The notes below the pieces were generated by a model that worked only from the letters and a program-made list of their open reading frames with translations, searched no databases and was not told the DNA's origin. Positions 4,514 to 27,400 of a stretch of 64,000 bases of DNA are shown piece after piece; position 1 is the stretch's first letter; each line of letters begins with the position of its first letter. Source of the DNA: an uncultured Eubacteriales bacterium. GTDB lineage: Bacteria > Bacillota > Clostridia > Oscillospirales > Oscillospiraceae. The stretch spans positions 1,198 through 65,197 of the forward strand of contig OMTF01000026.1 in assembly GCA_900313925.1 (NCBI GenBank). The letters are read 5' to 3'. The translations under genes and the position numbers were made by a program.

Positions 4514-5115
4514 CCAGCACAGATTTTTTCGCTTTGATATCGCGCATGAAATATATCTCCCGCTGGGGATTGATGCGCAACTCGGTACCGGAAAACATTC
4601 AGGAGCACAGCCACATGGTCGCAGTCGTCGCGCACGCGCTTGGCGTGATCCGAAGAGACATCTACGGAATTGCCTGCGATCCGGAGGCCTGCGCCGCCGT
4701 CGCCCTGTATCATGACGCGTCGGAAATCCTGACGGGCGATCTCCCGACACCGATAAAATACAACAACGAAGAGATTATGGACGCATATCATAAGGTGGAG
4801 GACCTGGCGTCCCGGAAACTGCTGTCCATGCTGCCGGAGGCGCTGCAGCCGACCTTTTCGGACATTATCTGCGGGGAAACGGCAAAAGCGGTCTATCCAC
4901 AGGTAAAAGCGGCAGATAAAATCTGCGCGTATATTAAATGCATTGAGGAGAGGAAGGCCGGCAATCGGGAATTTTTGTCTGCGGAAAAGCAGATCCGTAC
5001 GGTTTTGGAAGCGTCTCCGCTGCCGGAAGTAAAATATTTCATGGAGCAGTTCATCCCGAATTTCGAAAAGAACCTGGACGAACTCGGAACGCTGCGGGAG
5101 GCGGAAGATCTATGA
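4510..5115 (+). CDS. yfbR: HD-domain 5'-deoxynucleotidase, YfbR-like
   Basis: MTSTDFFALISRMKYISRWGLMRN..EHSHMVAVVAHAL..YHDASEILTGDLPTPIKY aligns closely with E. coli YfbR. The ATG overlaps the MATE stop (ATGA). Confidence 0.85.
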   Translation: MTSTDFFALISRMKYISRWGLMRNSVPENIQEHSHMVAVVAHALGVIRRDIYGIACDPEACAAVALYHDASEILTGDLPTPIKYNNEEIMDAYHKVEDLASRKLLSMLPEALQPTFSDIICGETAKAVYPQVKAADKICAYIKCIEERKAGNREFLSAEKQIRTVLEASPLPEVKYFMEQFIPNFEKNLDELGTLREAEDL

Positions 5116-17343: not shown

Positions 17344-17645
17344 AAAATATGCAGCACTCGCAGGGATATGAACCCTCTTTACTGGGCACTCTAACCAATA
17401 AAGAGGGGATTTTCATAGGCTCCCCGCGTACACGAAAGGGAACTGCGGCGATATGTACCTAGGTGGGAGCAGTGCCGCAACATCGGAGGATGTCCTCCAT
17501 AGAACCTGAGGCCGAAGAATCAAGCGATAGAACCTTTCAGAGCGTGTTGCAGCCAGGGCATAAAAAAATACCGCAAGAGAAAACAGGCAGTAGGGAGGCG
17601 AACAAGACGGAGAACTTTGCCCCGGAGATGCTTTTCAGGTTAAGC

Positions 17646-18170
17646 TCAAGTAATGCGGAGCAGATCCCGGACAAGAAAACCAAACATAAAGGCTGCTTCC
17701 GCGTGTTCCGTCAGCCTCCCTGATAGGAGACGCGCTTTGAAGGAAGCCCATGCAGCCGTGAAAGCCTCCTCAATATGCGTTCGCCCACGATAGACACAGC
17801 GCTTTTTTCGTCTCGCATATTTAATTTGCTTGAATTTGCTTGTCACGAATGCGTAGCAGTCGCCGTATTTTCCTTTTGCAGGCTCCTGCAACAACCGAAA
17901 AATGCAGCTGCAAAGAAAGACGTTTTTTATTGCAACAAACCTATTTTTCTTCTTCCCAACTCTTCTCCTTATCCAGAACCGGCGATGCGCCGCATGAAAA
18001 TTCGCAGGATTTCCTGTCAACGGAAAGATTTCGAACATAGGCGGCATGGCCGTTGCGATGACACGGGAGGAGTTCTTTGGATTTCAGATCAGGTCTTCTG
18101 CGCCGGCCGTGACAGCCGCCCGGCTCTGCGCGTTTTGACGCCGATACGGCAGATCCAGGAGAGCAAACGC
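17646..18170 (-). mobile_element. possible degraded DDE-transposase remnant (multi-frame, no intact ORF)
   Basis: The minus-strand translation contains ...YRGRTHIEEAFTAAWASFKARLLSGRLTEHAEAAFMFGFLVRDLLRI*. This resembles the Y..R..IE..F...K...R......F.....L C-terminal signature of IS4/IS5/IS1380-type transposases. Upstream fragments lie in other frames. The match is weak and motif-level only. Confidence 0.3.
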
Positions 18171-18194
18171 TAAGGGAAATTTTCCGCAAAAATA

Positions 18195-18223
18195 TTGATA
18201 ACGCACATATTTAATATTAAAAT
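18195..18223 (+). promoter_or_regulatory. candidate sigma-A promoter of the giant adhesin gene
   Basis: TTGATA-N17-TAAAAT inside a strongly AT-rich island (about 18180-18290) in otherwise GC-rich DNA. It lies about 100 nt upstream of ATG 18320. Confidence 0.45.
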
Positions 18224-18230
18224 AATATAA

Positions 18231-18263
18231 TTTGATAGAAAAAAGTTTGATAGATTTGATAGA
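18231..18263 (+). promoter_or_regulatory. three direct copies of TTTGATAGA (candidate operator) just downstream of the candidate -10
   Basis: Exact 9-mers at 18231-18239, 18246-18254 and 18255-18263. Confidence 0.55.
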
Positions 18264-18319
18264 AATGAAAAACATACATTTTGAAACAGGTTGGAATTTC
18301 GGAAGGAAGCAGTAAAGAC

Positions 18320-18430
18320 ATGAAACTCGAAACCAAGAGAAAGAAGAGTGTTGCAGCGGCTCTGGCCGCCATGGTAATAACAGCCGCGCTTTTTTCGTCG
18401 AATATTGGGAGAGCGGACGAGCTGCCCCCC
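18320..18430 (+). other. Sec signal-peptide-encoding segment of the giant adhesin, in a different frame from the body
   Basis: ATG 18320 follows GGAAGGAAG and encodes MKLETKRKKSVAAALAAMVITAALFSSNIGRADELPP. It ends in the C6 run at 18425-18430. As assembled, this frame runs on to a stop at 18667. Confidence 0.8.
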
Positions 18431-21400
18431 GGCACCCGTGACAGAAAAGACCGTCGTTTCAAATGGCGACGGCAGCTATCAGCTGACGCTCAGCGTCACA
18501 GGCGCGACCGCCTCTCAGGACCCGGTAGACGCAAACGTAGTGGTGATCATGGACCGGTCAAGCGGCATGAGCAACGATTCGGAGCCCGGTGCCAAGAAAA
18601 TAGACGTGGAGATAGCGGCGGTAAAGAAAATCTCCGAACTGATCGAAACGAACAACGTAAACGATGAGTCACACGTTCACGTCGCCGTCGTCGACTACGG
18701 AGCGACTGCCAATCTGTCCAATTTTGGGGAATTTGAGGAAGAGGGGAAATCCTGGACCGACAGCAAGTCTGACTTTGAAGATTACGTTAACAATGTCTCG
18801 GTAGATTCGGTAGATATTACTAATTCATATTCACAAGGGAGAAACTGGGAGGCGGCTCTGTCCGGGGCCCTGGTTGCCGCAAACGCTATGCAGCGCACCG
18901 ATGAGAAGGGCAATCCGGTACCGACGTACATAGTGTTCCTTTCGCAGGGAGATCCTACTCTTCGCCAGACGGCGGTATATCCCATGAGGAGTATTAGATA
19001 CTTCTCACAGAATCGCGACCCCTCCACGAGAAAACCGAGAGATAATTCTGCATGGACAAGGCCGAACCTCCCCCCTTACGGCAGCGGGTGGAACGATCCG
19101 AATTCTTACAATTACGCGCAAGCATCCTCTGTGGCGGAACAAATCGTCGGCGAGGGCTATCACCTTCTTACGGTCAATATTTTTAATGATTCCGCGAACC
19201 CGAAACTGGAAGTTCTGGCTAATGAGAAAAATGTGCCGTATTATAACGCTCCAACGTCCGCCTATCTTCAGACTGCGATCGAAAGCATCAAAGAGAAAAT
19301 AAAGACCCCTGTTTCCTATGCATATAAGAACGTAAAAATTACAGACACGCTTACGGATATGACCGCATCCGACATCGAAGACGGCGTTGCGGACGGGGAA
19401 GTATCCTATTCCATCAAGCGCGAGTCCGATGAACAGGCGCACGAGTGGTATGGCGCTCCTTCGCTTACGTTCGAGGACGGAAAAGCCGTATGGGATCTGG
19501 GGGACATGGAACTGGAAGAGGGCGCCGAGTATTCCGCCTCATTCCGCGTCTGGCCGAACCAGACGGCGTATGACATTCTGGCCGATCTGAAAAACAGGGT
19601 AAAGAATTACGATTCTGATCTGAGTGAAAGCGAGAAAAAACAGATCATTCAGCTTGAGGACGACTCCGGGTACGTTATCGGATACGGATTCAAGACCAAC
19701 GTCGATTCCGACTCACAGGTGGATTATACGCATGTGATCCGCGAAAATATCAGCGAACTGCCGGATGGCACGACTCCGGGAGCGACATATACCGAGACCC
19801 GAAATGGAATCGACTACACTGCAGTTTATACAAATAACGATGACGGAAGAACGTACACAAAGACGATGACCGCAGCCGGTCAGTCCCAGCTGCCTGTCCC
19901 GGACCTCATTCCGCTGGAGGCGAAGCAGATCCCTGTAGAGAAAATATGGTACGACGCGGCAGATAACAGTCTGCGCCCGGAGGAGGTCAAATTAGAGATA
20001 TTCCGCGATGACGCCACGGAAGGCGAAAAAAGCGTGGGGGAGAGGGTATTAAATAGTAGTAACGCCTGGTCTCTTCAGGTCTATATCGCGCCGGGACTCA
20101 TCGATAAAGACGGAAATGTCCTGAACGCAGGGCACGACTATTACGTTAAAGAAGAAAATCTGAACGACGCTTATGAGATGTTCTGTGATCCTAAGCATCC
20201 TATGGTCGTAAACGGAAATCTGCAGAGTTCTTCCACAGAGAATACTCCGGCTAAATTACAGGCGGAAAACAATCTGAAAGGGAGCCTTATCGTGACAAAG
20301 ACGGTCAGAAAAGCAGCTTCTGACCTCACGCCGGATCCGGAAACTGAATTCACGTTCCAATTCAGTCTTAAAGAGTCTTCGGCCGAGGACGCATCGGCAT
20401 GGTCCGGCACGGCAAAGATCGTGAATAAGGACGACTCGTACACAGAAGTGCCCGTGACCGACGGAACGGAGATAAGGATCCGCTCTTCACAGACCATCCG
20501 TATAGATAAGATGCCGAACGGGACGTACTATGAAGTCAAAGAGGTCCGCCTCCCAGACGGATATACGCTAGACGAACTGAAGGGATCCGAGGGGACGACT
20601 TCCGATCTCGCAAACCTGACGATCTCAGGCGAGGCCAAAACGCTCACGACGCAGAACCTTGTATTCAACAATATGTACACGGCTGCCCCTGTCGACATCA
20701 CGATCCCGGTGCATAAGCACGTTTCGGGCGAAGACGTTCCGGACATAACGGGAGCGTACACGTTTACTCTGACCGCAAGCGAGGGAGCCCCGCTTCCGCG
20801 CGTTCAGTCGAAGACCAATCCGGACGCGGACGGCGGGAAGATTCTTTTCGGAACCGATGACGATAAGATCACTTTCACGAAGAAAGGTGAGTATATCTAT
20901 ACGGTGACGGAGACGAACACCCCAGAAAAAACCATTCCGGGCATGACAAACGACCCGGCTTATCAACGCAACATCGGCGTTGTGATCGAAGACGACGGGA
21001 AAGGGCATCTGACCGCGAAGCTTACCATGACAAAATCCGATTCGGACGGATGTGAGAGTTTCACCAACACCTATCTCTCGCAGGATGCGAAGGTAAGCAT
21101 ACCGGTTTCGAAAGGTCTCGAGGTACCTGACGGGCTTACCGGGCCAGACATCACAGGAAAATACAAGTTCACGCTTACGGCGGTCAGCGCATCTCTCGAT
21201 GATGGAAGAGCCCTTGCGGCGGCAGATATGCCGATGCCGGCATCGGGTGGCGAATCGGTTCTGAACAGCGAGTCGCGCGGAGGAAATATGACGTTCGGTG
21301 AGATCGCTTTTGACGAACCGGGACAGTACACATATCAGATCACCGAGAGCAACAATACATCGGACGGCAGAGCGCTCCCCGGCGTTACGAACGACAGCGA

Positions 21401-24400
21401 ATCGACAAAGACGGTCGTCGTCACGGTCACCGCTTCCAACACCGTGATCGAAGGAAAAAACGTCAGGATACTCAGCGCTACCCTGCCTACCACGACTTTT
21501 ATCAACAAATACAGCGCGGCGCAGGTCTCTGCCTCCGTACCCGTAAAGAAGATGCTCGATTCCACAACCGGGTTCAAACCGGACATCGCAGGGAAATACA
21601 CATTCTATCTGGCGACGACGGATCCGGATATGCCTATGCCGGAGGGAACGCAGACGCTTTCCGACGGAACTCGCTATGTGACAGTTACAAACCCTGACAG
21701 CGACGGAGGGACCGCATCCTTCCCTGCCATCACGTTCACAAAAGAAGGAACGTATGACTACGCCGTGCGCGAGACGGGGAAAGTCGCCGGAGTGACGAAC
21801 GACGCCAATCCGGTAAGGAGAGTCTCGATTGTCGTTGTCGATGATACGAAAGGGAATCTGTATATCGACGATGCCAAGTCCATCGGGCTATCCGAACCTA
21901 CGACGTTCACGAACAAGTACTCCGTCAGCTCTGTCATGGGCTCGATCACACTGAAGAAGACGCTGGCCTGCGACGCCGGTCTTACCCCACCGGATATCAG
22001 TAACGCTTATACGTTCCGGATCACGGCTCTGACGGATGGCGCGCCTATGCTGGACGGCGCGGGGACCGGTACCGACGACGACGGGCACAGATACGTCACG
22101 GTAACAAACCCTGACAAAGACGGCGGAACGATCTCCGTGAATAACCTCGCATTCACCCGGGAGGGGACATACCGCTATAAGGTCGAGGAAACGGGCAGCA
22201 AAGCCGGGGTAGAGAACGACAGCACGCCTGTCCGATATATACAGTTCGTCGTCACGGACGAACATGACGGCACACTTTCCGTCAAGATAAAGACGACAGA
22301 CGCGGACGGCGGTAACGCCACCGACGTCCCGGATAACACAGTCGAATTCGTAAACACGTATTCGGTCAAGGGCGTCACCATAAACGCCTCGGTAAGGAAG
22401 ACACTCTCCGTGCCTTCGGGATTTACCGCGCCGGACGTCACCGGCAAGTTCACATTCACGCTGTCAGCGTCGGGAGACGTTCCGATGCCGGAAGGATCCC
22501 AGACCTCATCGCAGGGCGTGACGGCAAAGGCGGTCGTGAATCCGGACGCGGACGGCGGCACGGCTTCATTCGGGGACATCACTTTTACAAAGCCGGGGAC
22601 ATATAAATACGGCATTTCCGAAAACAGTGACAACTCCCTGAACGACATCATACAAAACGACGCGGCAAACCCTAAGATCGCGACAGCCACGGTGACCGAC
22701 AATTCCGACGGCACCCTGCGCGTGGTCGTCACGTCCACATATAAAGACGTGCTCGGAAACGACACCACGGTCACTTTATACGACAGCAAAACCTCGGAGA
22801 GCGCGGAGCCTGTTTCTTTCACGAACACGTATAAGCTGCCGGATCCGGTCACCTGCATCATCCCTGTGACGAAGGAGATCGACCGCCCTGCCGGTTCAAA
22901 CCCTGAGAGCATAAAGAACGACTTCACCTTCAGCATCGAAGCGGATTCCGCGGGAGCCCCGCTGCCGGCGGAAAACACGTCGATAACGAATCCGGACGAT
23001 GAGGGAGGCACAGCCGAATTCGGAGCCATCTCCTTCACATCTCCGGGCACTTACAGATATAAGATCACCGAATCGAATACGGATCCTGCAAACCCGCCAG
23101 AGGGCTTTACAGAAGATGAGAACAATCCTAAGTACGTGACCGTCGTCGTGACCGACAATAAAAACGGTTCCATGAATGCCAAACTCTACGGAGCAGACAC
23201 GGTCTGGAATTCCGATGGCACCGTGAAGGAGGAATACAGTTCCACGACTTTTATTAATAAGTACGACACCTCCGCCGTGCTGGTGAACATCCCTGTCACG
23301 AAGGCGATAGACAGCGCCGAAGGCACGTCCCACCAGGACGCCACAGGTCTGTTTTCGTTTACGCTGACAGCAGGTAGGAACGACGCGGGCGTTGAAACCC
23401 CTATGCCTTCGGGCGAAGGGAATGTTGCGTATAACCCGGATTCCGATGGCGGTACGGCATACTTCGGCAGCATCACGTACTCAAAAGTCGGGGTGTACCA
23501 CTATACAATAAAAGAAAACGACACGGACACGGAAACCGGCGGATTCACATACGACAAGAGCGAAAAAGAAGTAATCGTCACGGTATCGGATAACGGACAG
23601 GGTCAGCTCGTTGCGGAGATACAAGGTGCGGACTCCACGACGGATAAGACCGTTTCTTCCACAACTTTTACAAACTCGTACACTTCGAAAGGAACGTACG
23701 GATTCACTGCCGCGAAGAAACTGAATGCCCTGAACGGCACGACGGGACCGGACATCACGAATAAATTCCGCTTTACTCTCACGGCAGACGACGCATCGAA
23801 TCCTATGCCTTCCGGATCGATCACCGCGTCGGACGGAACGGTCTCTAAGACAGTCGAAGGACCTAACGAAGCAGGCTACGTGGTCTTCGGGAGCGCCGAA
23901 TTCACGAAAGAAGGCGAGTACTCCTATACGATCCGCGAGTCGGGAGGCAGCCTGCCGGGCGTGGAGAACGACACGGCGGAAAAGAAGATCACGCTGAGCG
24001 TCAAAGACGGCGGCATGGGCAAAATGAACATCACGGTAAAAGACGGCTCAGATAAACCGGCTTTCGAGAACACTTACGCCGCCGAAGGCACAGCCGAAAT
24101 TTCCGTGTCCAAAAAACTCAGCGGCGTTCCATCCGGCGCAGCCGTCGACATCAGCAGCAAATATCGCTTCACACTCACTGCGGACGAAGGCACTCCGCTG
24201 CCGGAGACGACCTCTTACACGAACCCGGACTCCGACGGAGGAACCGTCAAGTTCAGCGGCATCAAATACACCTCTCCGGGGCAGTACACTTACACGATAA
24301 CCGAATCCAACGAAGGCGACGCTGTGCCGGGAGAGACAAACGACGCGAATTCCTCGCGCACGGTTGTCGTGAAAGTGACCGATAACAAAGACGGAACCTT

Positions 24401-27400
24401 GATGACCCGTGTCACCGGAGATACCACATTTACGAACGTATATAAGGCAGATCCAGTAAACGTTTCCATCCCGGTGCGCAAAGGCATCGACAATCCTCAG
24501 AACGTGATCTTGCCAGATTTCACGGGCGACTTCACGTTCACGCTGACGGGAGAAGACAATGCACCGCTCCCGGAGGTTACGGTCCTTACCAACCCGATGG
24601 AGAGAGGCGGCGACCTCACGTTCGGCAGCATCGAATTCACGGAAGCCGGAACATACACGTATAAAATAAAAGAGACTTCGACCAAAGATGAGGCTACGAC
24701 AGCCGTCATCTTCGACAGCGAGCCCGAGAGGACCGTGACGGTCGTCGTTACCGATGACGGCAGCGGCAGACTCAGCGCGGCGGTATACGAGGGGAGCGCA
24801 GAGACAGGCTCTGAAATAACCGCTGAGTCCCCCTTGACGTTTAATAACACATTCTCGCCTGCCGTAATCCAGGTGAGAGCTTATAAGACTCTCCTCGGGC
24901 GCAACATGATGCCGGGAGAAAAATTCACGTTCAGGATCGAGCCCGGAGACGAGAGCACTCTCGAATCCCTTAGAGATGACCAGATAGCGCTTACAGACGG
25001 TACTACGCCGGCGAATTACCTGGAGACCACGGTATCGAACCTCACAGACGGTCACAAGACGGTATTCTCGTTCGGCAGCGCGATATTCCGCGAGCCGGGG
25101 GACTACTACTTCAAAGTCACTGAGGTCGTTCCTGCCGACGCGGACAAAAAACCGAACGTTACGTACGACAGTTCAGAACAGTATCTGAAGATAACCGTCA
25201 CGCAGAACGCAGACAAAACGTTGTCGGCCGCGGCTTCGACCGTGGCCAAAGGATCGGACGGCAGCTGGTCTGACGATACCGACGGAACGGGCTTTGTCAA
25301 TAAATATATCGTTTCGACCGTATCGGAAAAACCCTGGATTAGCAAAATCGCAAGATCAAGTCCGGACGACACGGGCGTTGCGGTGCCGTTCAACGCAGGA
25401 GATTTCACGTTCACCGCATACTATAAGAAAGGCGAACTGGAGAATACGCCTGTCAGTTCAGTGACGAACCCTGACGATTCCGCAGACGGCAGTGACCGGT
25501 TCGAATTCAACCACATCGAATTCTTCACCGCGGACGCTCCAGCGGGAGAGTTCACGCTCCAGGAACTCGTCGACAAGGGTACCGCAGAAAAGACCGTCAC
25601 GGCGGACGGTGTGACGACGTATAAGATCGACTATATCATCAAGGAAACGGAGGAGCCGGACCAGTACACAACGAACGACCAGGGATATTCATTCCAGATG
25701 GTAGTGACGGACGACGGCAAAGGAAACCTCACCGTTGCGCAAGATCCTGACTATGACTTTGAATTCGACAACTATCTGAAGTCGGCTGCAGTTAGAGTGA
25801 CGCTGGACGGACGCAAGACTCTGAGCGGACGCGAACTGAAACAGGGCGAAGTGACGTTCCGGCTGGAACCGGCTGATAATGCGAACCCTATGCCTTCGGA
25901 AGGCACGGAGACCGACGCGGACGGGAAAAAATACAAGACCTCGACGAACGTAGTCGGCGGCGAAGTACATTTCGGCAATATCGTGTTCACTCAGGATAAT
26001 ATGGTCGGCGTACCGGTGAATGGATACAGGGACTTTAAATATACCGTATCTGAGGCACCTACGACCGCGGGCAGCATGCCTAACGTAACGTTCCAGGATC
26101 CAGAGGAGTTCACGATCCGGGTATTTAAGAAAATTAAAGAGGGAAGTACTTCGGATTTCGTACTTGACTACGAGATTCTTGACAAAGACGGGAATAAAGT
26201 TAAAACCGCGTTCATCTTCGAGAACGTCTACACACCGGAGCCTGCAACGGCAACCATCAAAGCGTATAAGGCGCTGGAGACGACAAACAGCGCAGGCTTA
26301 ACGTGGAAGAGCTTCAGCGGAAAGTTCAGCTTCATTCTCGAAGCCGCGAACAACGACGCGGGCGTACAGACGCCGATGCCGGAAAACGGAGTGAAGACCG
26401 ACGAAGACGGCGATCGATACGTGGTCGTGACGCTGACGGATACTTCTGCGAACGGCGCGCCTCTGACCGAGCCAGCGTGCGTGGAGTTCGACAGCATTAA
26501 GTTCGAAAAACCGGGTATCTATAACTATTTGATCACAGAGACAGGAAACTCCGGCGGCGTCACCAACGACCGGGACACCGAACGCCGCATAGCAGTCCGG
26601 GTGACCGACGATCCTTCTACCGGCAGACTGTCTGCAAAAGTATATAACGAGAACGGCATTCCGAAAAGCGAGGATGTCAGCAGCCGCACGACGTTCACGA
26701 ACAAATACGCCACAGCCCCTGCGACGGCTGTGATAACGGTCACGAAGAAACTCTCTGTGCCTGAAGGCACGAACGGACCGTCCGACATCGCAGGCAAGTT
26801 CACATTCACTCTGCGTCCGGGCACAAACACTGCGGAAGGCAGCATTGAAACGCCGATGCCGGAAGGATCGCCTTCCGACAGCGAAGGTGTCTATGCGACG
26901 GTGACGAACCCGGACAAAGACGGCGGGACTGCGTCGTACGGCAGCATCAAGTTCGAAAAACCGGGTGTCTATACTTACACAATAAGCGAGAGCGGCACGG
27001 CAGACGGCATCCTGAACGATTCTGAAAAGACCGTGACCGTTACGGTCACAGACCTCGGAAACGGCAAATTGAAAGCCGATGTGACCGAACAGGCTACGTT
27101 CACGAACTCATACTCCGTCAAACCTGTTTCGGCAGAACTCACGGTGACGTGCGCTTTGAAGTCTTCGACCCCGAGGATCGAACTTCTGAATATCAAAGAC
27201 CAGTATACGTATACCATCGGGACTGCGACCAGAGGCCCTTCAGCTCCGATGCCTGAAAAGACCGTGATCAAGAACACGAGCGACAGCGCAGACGAGAACG
27301 GACGCGGTACGTATTCGTTCGGAAACGTGGAGTTCACCGCACCGGGGACGTATGTGTATCTGATTACACAGAGCGGGAACATTCCGGGAGTCGTGAATGA

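Follow-up and report, generated by a model that had tools for sequence, protein, structure and literature searches.

The 64,000-nucleotide stretch of DNA analysed here (the window; positions 1,198 to 65,197 of contig OMTF01000026.1, from an uncultured Eubacteriales bacterium) carries the gene for a giant adhesin whose signal peptide and body lie in different reading frames that meet at a run of six C residues. Comparison with the same locus in other samples showed that the extra C is genuine, inherited and restricted to one lineage, haplotype A (hapA), of a rumen bacterium. It probably arose as a lineage-specific slipped-strand insertion that lengthened the tract from five to six bases (C5 to C6), leaving a null or strongly reduced allele of an adhesin that is often lost in this species.

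The signal peptide and the adhesin body meet out of frame at a C tract

Translation of the window from ATG 18320 gave MKLETKRKKSVAAALAAMVITAALFSSNIGRA/DELPPGTRDRK..., ending with a TGA at 18665-18667. The N-terminus was assigned as a Sec signal peptide by eye from the features of its n-, h- and c-regions: the n-region is basic, the hydrophobic core spans 15 residues, and positions -3 to -1 read G-R-A. The adhesin body occupies another frame, which is blocked by a TAA at 18378-18380, is first open at TTG 18405 and ends at 29705. The resulting open reading frame (ORF) of 3766 amino acids begins LGERTSCPPAPVTEK and has neither a signal peptide nor a Shine-Dalgarno (SD) sequence. The two frames cross at CTG-CCCCCC-GGC, just after the signal-peptide cleavage site (codons 36-37), and joining them needs a +1 shift, equivalent to one base lost or two gained. 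When one C was removed in silico, an uninterrupted protein of 3794 amino acids resulted, MKLE...ADELPPAPVTEK.... The features of the locus are collected in Table 1.

This layout had been described in an earlier note made from the letters of the window alone, and it stood up on direct reading. A Sec-type signal peptide does follow an SD-like sequence at ATG 18320; the adhesin frame does open only at TTG 18405, closed upstream by the TAA and devoid of an SD or signal peptide; and the frames do meet at the C6 tract, with the signal-peptide frame stopping at 18667. The note's further statement, that deletion of one C would give a continuous protein, is borne out by a natural counterpart (P0012), which encodes exactly that product from a C5 tract. 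The short products of the signal-peptide ORF (115 and 128 amino acids) had no entry in the protein collection searched.

Table 1. Positions in the window of the features of the adhesin locus and of the lesions found in the gene among conspecific contigs.
Feature	Position	Strand	Remarks
Promoter-like TTGATA-17-TAAAAT	18195..18223	+	10/12 consensus matches; 1 site against 0.7 expected from shuffles
Three copies of TTTGATAGA	18231-18239, 18246-18254, 18255-18263	+	Read from sequence
SD-like GGAAGGAAG	18301..18309	+	10 nt 5' of ATG 18320; read from sequence
Signal-peptide coding region MKLETKRKKSVAAALAAMVITAALFSSNIGRA, 32 codons	18320..18415	+	Predicted cleavage before D33
C6 homopolymer, frameshift site	18425..18430	+	One base more than C5 (CCC CCG = Pro-Pro) of the intact allele
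Out-of-frame tail of the signal-peptide frame	18431..18667	+	78 residues, highly basic nonsense; ends with TGA 18665-18667
Mature adhesin body, codons 38-3794 of the intact protein	18432..29705	+	Weak vWA-like head, DUF7604, DUF7601, at least 18 FctA/Spy0128-type isopeptide domains, Cna_B
A7-to-A6 frameshift, codon 273	19137..19142	+	A7 in hapB; A6 in L096-L101 on the E934* background; GAACAA in the window, no run
Q466*, codon 466 CAG to TAG	19716..19718	+	L094, L095; E934* background
E934*, codon 934 GAG to TAG	21120..21122	+	13 loci (L005-L009, L094-L101) and the mosaic L107
Y1145*, codon 1145 TAT to TAG	21753..21755	+	L094, third nonsense mutation of that contig; E934* background
~5-kb 3' deletion, codon ~2369 to gene end and downstream DNA	25425..29705	+	L092, L093 (P0017), otherwise intact hapB
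Sorting-signal-like C-terminal tail	29598..29702	+	SGVNTGD, hydrophobic segment, REKHRK

Tract length segregates with haplotype

The called products of the window gene, 3755 amino acids from GTG 18438 and 3766 amino acids from TTG 18405, fall in a cluster of 73 members formed at 90% identity. The same cluster contains P0012, a protein of 3794 amino acids (MKLETKRKK...GRADELPPAPVTEKTVVSNG) that is encoded with a C5 tract and was found on seven contigs. This signal peptide and the adhesin share one frame in P0012 and also in P0010, P0014 and P0017. Two contigs, L003 and L004, show C5 where the window has C6, with flanks identical for at least 100 bp on each side of the tract. Since the exact 3794-residue protein exists, with a C5 tract and identical flanks, the pairing of the signal-peptide frame with the adhesin frame is not a chance overlap.

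The tract was read in 25 loci, comprising the window and 24 contigs from other samples. These fall into two haplotypes, hapA and hapB, which differ at 64 sites over 13 kb (~99.5% identity). All eight hapA loci carry C6 (the window, L001/L010, L002, L011, L103, L104, L105 and L106; samples ERR2027900, ERR2282092, ERR983264, ERR3224608, ERR983265, ERR3224579 and SAMEA104567052), whereas all 17 hapB loci, from 17 different runs or assemblies, carry C5 (L003-L009 and L092-L101). The seven hapA assemblies other than the window are short-read (Illumina-based), come from different runs and were made by different pipelines (ENA MEGAHIT-style contigs and Logan contigs). HapA can be divided further into three sub-haplotypes by gene positions 5056 and 8345, and C6 is present in all three. 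One hapA record names PRJEB21624, a cow-rumen metagenome project. A full-length intact adhesin was seen in 2 of the 25 loci, or on seven contigs when counted by exact protein. A scan of Joint Genome Institute (JGI) metagenomes for the exact pattern around the tract, with C4 to C8 allowed, returned no match.

We also searched for homologues with the repaired N-terminal 662 amino acids against 5.8 billion proteins. Only four relatives were found (P0001-P0004), at 27-29% identity, and the search returned no close orthologue from another species. In all four, an in-frame signal peptide lies shortly upstream of a '...TLSVTG...' motif, followed by a vWA-like region, both of which they share with the present adhesin. 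The in-frame state is also the majority among the sampled contigs of the species (17 of 25). Parsimony points to the intact C5 allele as the ancestral one, because these distant homologues have their signal peptide in frame with the N-terminal motif.

Comparison of related loci had been proposed in the earlier note, and it has thus recovered both the in-frame C5 allele (17 hapB loci) and the C6 allele (eight hapA loci). The note had held that three explanations of the frame disruption, a sequencing error, a reversible slipped-strand switch and a +1 ribosomal frameshift, could not be separated from the sequence alone; the comparison of public assemblies now separates them.

The C6 allele as a probable loss-of-function allele

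The C6 allele is truncated relative to an intact conspecific allele, its lesion is linked to haplotype, and several independent lesions occur in the same gene, as in natural premature-stop alleles of the inlA type. Most likely, replication slippage in the Pro-Pro codons of the C5 tract, CCC-CCG, added one C. Ribosomes loading at the sole good start, the SD-like sequence with ATG 18320, would then make the signal peptide followed by 78 junk residues. Since the 11.3-kb body has no SD, ATG or export signal of its own, hapA would be expected to make little or no surface adhesin.

The insertion is one of a series of lesions (Table 1). E934* is the commonest adhesin lesion in the species; by protein count it occurs on at least 36 contigs, and it is linked to a synonymous change at codon 320. 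Secondary lesions have accumulated on this background, and L095, which shares Q466* with L094, is too short to reach codon 1145, the site of the third nonsense mutation of L094. In total, the gene was first broken independently at least three times (by the C6 insertion, E934* and the 3' deletion), and three secondary lesions are known besides. Both frameshifts, C6 and A7-to-A6, sit at homopolymers, as a mutation-driven spectrum predicts. The recurrence of independent lesions suggests that the adhesin is dispensable or counter-selected in many hosts, for which its cost, phage attack or host immunity are possible causes. Outside the head domain, ~3480 codons hold 16 nonsynonymous and 22 synonymous differences between hapA and hapB, which argues that purifying selection acted on the body during most of its history and that the lesions are recent.

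Alleles of the gene are also exchanged between strains. One contig, L107 (SRR27787418), is a mosaic of hapA-type and hapB-type blocks of single-nucleotide polymorphisms (SNPs) along the adhesin gene, and carries E934*; it begins at codon 321, so that the C tract is outside its coverage. The mosaic indicates that homologous recombination shuffles adhesin alleles between strains, and repair by recombination is possible.

Several points weigh against the interpretation of C6 as an inherited loss of function. The C6 samples that could be traced all come from cattle-rumen projects, the remainder being linked to these only by accession series, and the C6 assemblies may represent a single clonal strain, in which case separate assemblies would not be separate origins. 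Consensus assemblies would hide any minority C5 subpopulation within a sample. HapA has no secondary lesion: its 3757 downstream codons are intact, and the window copy of the adhesin body contains no stop or frameshift other than that at C6. This intactness fits a recent event, but it fits continued selection on a gene in use equally well. Finally, the C6 allele may be leaky rather than null, since a +1 slip on CCC-CCC-G restores the wild-type sequence.

Alternative explanations for the C6 tract

We considered whether the adhesin is turned ON and OFF by a contingency switch with C5 and C6 as its two states, hapA being caught in the OFF state. Both tract lengths do exist in the species, the change lies at the 5' end of the gene, where a switch would be most economical, and a second frameshift, A7-to-A6, likewise affects a homopolymer. 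The position resembles that of the poly-G/C contingency loci of Campylobacter, Neisseria and Haemophilus, in which a homopolymer in the 5' coding region sets the frame of a surface protein. The mosaic L107, with its evidence of recombination between haplotypes, offers a route to repair. Reversion of the short tract of Listeria monocytogenes inlA from A6 to A7 is reported in PMC2831843 at ~5.5e-7, about 1000 times the point-mutation frequency, though far below classical switching.

A switch should, however, leave homoplasy, and here tract length is perfectly linked to haplotype across the 25 loci and constant in the three hapA sub-haplotypes. Exact protein look-ups of the switched combinations (hapA with C5, and hapB-E934* with C6, from either start) found none, within the limited power of this approach. 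In Campylobacter jejuni, poly-G/C tracts vary between and within closely related isolates. The phase-variable tracts analysed in PMC4965091 comprise at least seven repeats, against five to six bases, fixed within a lineage, in the present gene. The intact gene contains 30 runs of at least five bases, including A7 twice, and the C tract is not the longest of them. A second C6, at 19070-19075, is in frame (...LPPY...) and did not vary among the loci examined, which makes it an internal control for the low instability of C tracts in this gene. The remaining lesions, nonsense mutations and a deletion, are irreversible. The slipped-strand switch put forward by the earlier note is thus right in that C5 and C6 alleles both exist, but the tract is fixed by haplotype (8 of 8 and 17 of 17) with no sign of switching. 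The frame-toggling tract looks like the result of a one-off mutation and not like a contingency switch, and we regard reversible phase variation as unlikely, although slow reversion may occur.

A leaky allele is a second alternative. Pro-Pro-Gly is a motif at which ribosomes stall in dependence on EF-P, and it is encoded in the 0 frame at the tract. Ribosomes stalled on CCC-CCC-G might make +1 slips, so that the extra C would act as a 'dimmer' that provides a low, steady dose of wild-type adhesin. A leaky allele would explain why the 11.3-kb ORF has stayed intact in three hapA sub-haplotypes while the E934* lineage gained further lesions, and the adhesin could return to full expression by rare reversion from C6 to C5 or by recombination. 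We consider such a leaky allele rather improbable.

Closely related is the proposal that translational recoding is meaningful in its own right, with a +1 frameshift on CCC-CCC-G, either programmed or a substantial leak, joining signal peptide and body into the wild-type product. As in prfB-type sites and tRNA-Pro slippage, the tract offers a perfect CCC-C/CCC-G re-pairing site where a +1 shift is needed, and CC[C/U]-[C/U] sequences are +1-slippery in Escherichia coli, at up to ~1% at the second codon, under the restraint of m1G37 and EF-P (PMC4519876). By sequence logic, a slip on either CCC would give ...ELPPAPVTEK..., identical to P0012. The downstream ORF is open for 11.3 kb, and the RNA immediately 3' of the tract has a slightly more favourable fold than shuffled sequences (z = -2.16).

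The distribution of the shift speaks against recoding, in that the frames are joined in 17 of the 25 conspecific loci and in each of the four distant homologues, which makes the shift derived and unconserved. Of the elements that accompany a prfB-type site, a 0-frame stop and a closely spaced SD-like sequence are missing as well. The 0-frame codon after the tract is GGC and not a stop, the first 0-frame stop being 237 nt away, and GGGAGAG (18407-18413), the sole SD-like stretch, lies 11 nt 5' of the tract as against ~3 nt in prfB-type sites. The 3' fold, itself marginal, is also present in the C5 allele, which implies that it did not evolve for shifting, and a search of 17700-18800 against Rfam gave no match. 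Reported rates of non-programmed shifting are ~1% or less even at the most shift-prone position (PMC4519876). The +1 frameshift suggested by the earlier note is thus unsupported as a programmed event, and recoding that yields a meaningful amount of product appears very unlikely; low-level accidental CCC-C slippage in the C6 allele, a leak of ~1%, is possible.

The remaining explanation in the earlier note, a base-calling or assembly error over a true C5 tract in an intact gene, can be rejected as next to impossible: homopolymers are classic error sites and a one-base repair would suffice, but the identical C6 recurs in seven other assemblies of different runs and pipelines and in three sub-haplotypes, the 17 sister-haplotype assemblies, made alike, give C5, and an error would not segregate with 64 linked SNPs.

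Architecture of the adhesin

Searches against Pfam and NCBIfam gave the domain order vWA_2-like, DUF7604, DUF7601, FctA/Spy0128 stretches and Cna_B. The vWA_2 match is weak (E = 0.0013, below the Pfam threshold) and lies around the motif VVVIMDRSSGMS. The stalk is matched by FctA from Pfam in 18 stretches (E = 2.8e-288) and by TIGR03786 in 16 stretches, and Cna_B is matched with E = 1.7e-21. No match to the head domain was found by sequence in the PDB. At the C-terminus the sorting motif reads GVNTG (VNTG) and not LPXTG, and the hydrophobic segment and basic REKHRK tail that follow such a motif are present. The distant homologues have LPSTG, VPDTA or APDTG at the matching place in their C-terminal tails. 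No sortase was noticed among the neighbouring genes examined, although no search was aimed at sortases.

With a Sec signal peptide in the intact allele and FctA and Cna_B stalk domains, the gene product is built, as judged from its predicted domains, like a Gram-positive isopeptide adhesin of the sortase type that carries a ligand-binding head. It resembles the tip adhesins RrgA and GBS104, and the Spy0128/FctA and Cna_B stalks, in having a signal peptide, a vWA-like head, isopeptide domains and a C-terminal tail. It differs from the RrgA/GBS104 type in its giant size (3794 amino acids with at least 18 FctA domains), its sub-threshold vWA match, and in DRSSG in place of DxSxS and VNTG in place of LPXTG. 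The first of these motif differences falls at the metal ion-dependent adhesion site (MIDAS) of the vWA-like head, which reads D-R-S-S-G (VVVIMDRSSGMS, 18545-18565); the four distant homologues have DRSGS, DKSSS, DVSGS and DTSGS at this position, all of which conform to DxSxS.

Variation in the head domain

The head domain (18582-19265, codons 88-315) differs between hapA and hapB by 16 nonsynonymous and only two synonymous changes. In 12 of these 18 the hapB base is A (giving, for example, E to K, Q to K or Y to N), and a 13th change of this kind is found outside the head, at codon 544. The excess of amino-acid changes in the head suggests diversifying selection or imported sequence. A diversity-generating retroelement was considered as the source of the A-biased substitutions and was dropped, as no template repeat was found in the window.

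Promoter region and neighbouring genes

The three copies of TTTGATAGA, two of them adjacent, sit between the promoter-like site and the SD-like sequence, and a related TTGATAA occurs at 18195. The triplicate may be a putative binding site for a regulator, or operator. Further upstream, an ORF of 83 amino acids at 17472-17723, without a Pfam match, was called in most of the contigs that cover this stretch and was found in ~158 sample blocks of the public collection.

The neighbours of the adhesin gene encode RecJ, RelA/SpoT and the ribosomal proteins L10 and L7/L12. When RecJ was compared with the GTDB species genomes, the best matches, to metagenome-assembled genomes (MAGs) of rumen or gut Oscillospiraceae or Ruminococcaceae, reached no more than 51% identity, which places the organism as an uncultured relative of these families. 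The adhesin head had no relative in this collection, which does not include the species itself.

The haplotypes also differ directly 3' of the adhesin gene. At ~30359, hapB has 677 bp (L003 13044-13720) that are absent from the window. The gene calls in this region are a 167-residue protein and a 797-residue Pur_ac_phosph/Metallophos protein in hapB, and proteins of 177 and 585 residues in hapA. The phosphatase gene beside the adhesin may thus also be altered in hapA.

Relation to known systems and significance

The closest parallel to the C6 allele is inlA of Listeria monocytogenes (Orsi et al. 2010, PMC2831843), where, as reported there, an A7 tract near the 5' end is in frame and A6 is out of frame, and multiple premature-stop alleles occur in nature. 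Both genes encode cell-wall-anchored-type adhesins of Firmicutes, both show a one-base difference between lineages in a 5' homopolymer, and in both other stop alleles and intact alleles coexist. The tract differs in composition and place, being A6/A7 at codons 3-8 in inlA and C5/C6 in Pro-Pro codons after the signal-peptide cleavage site in the present gene. At least two independent origins of the inlA frameshift are described in PMC2831843, whereas only one was seen here. The present gene also belongs to an uncultured rumen commensal, and its protein is ten times larger. Recurrent adhesin loss is a familiar pattern in pathogens, Listeria (inlA) among them, and the mechanism is not new; what is new is to find an inlA-like series of alleles in an uncultured rumen bacterium and for a much larger protein.

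The finding bears on annotation. The ORFs of 3755 and 3766 amino acids called in this MAG and its relatives represent a frameshifted allele, and should be flagged as disrupted and not taken as an intact cytoplasmic giant, the true product being a secreted adhesin of 3794 amino acids. For the biology of the organism, a single species of rumen commensal carries at least three first-hit and three secondary lesions in one 11.4-kb gene, and the intact form is in the minority among the contigs retrieved. This is a clear natural case of a gut symbiont repeatedly losing a surface structure that is costly or targeted.

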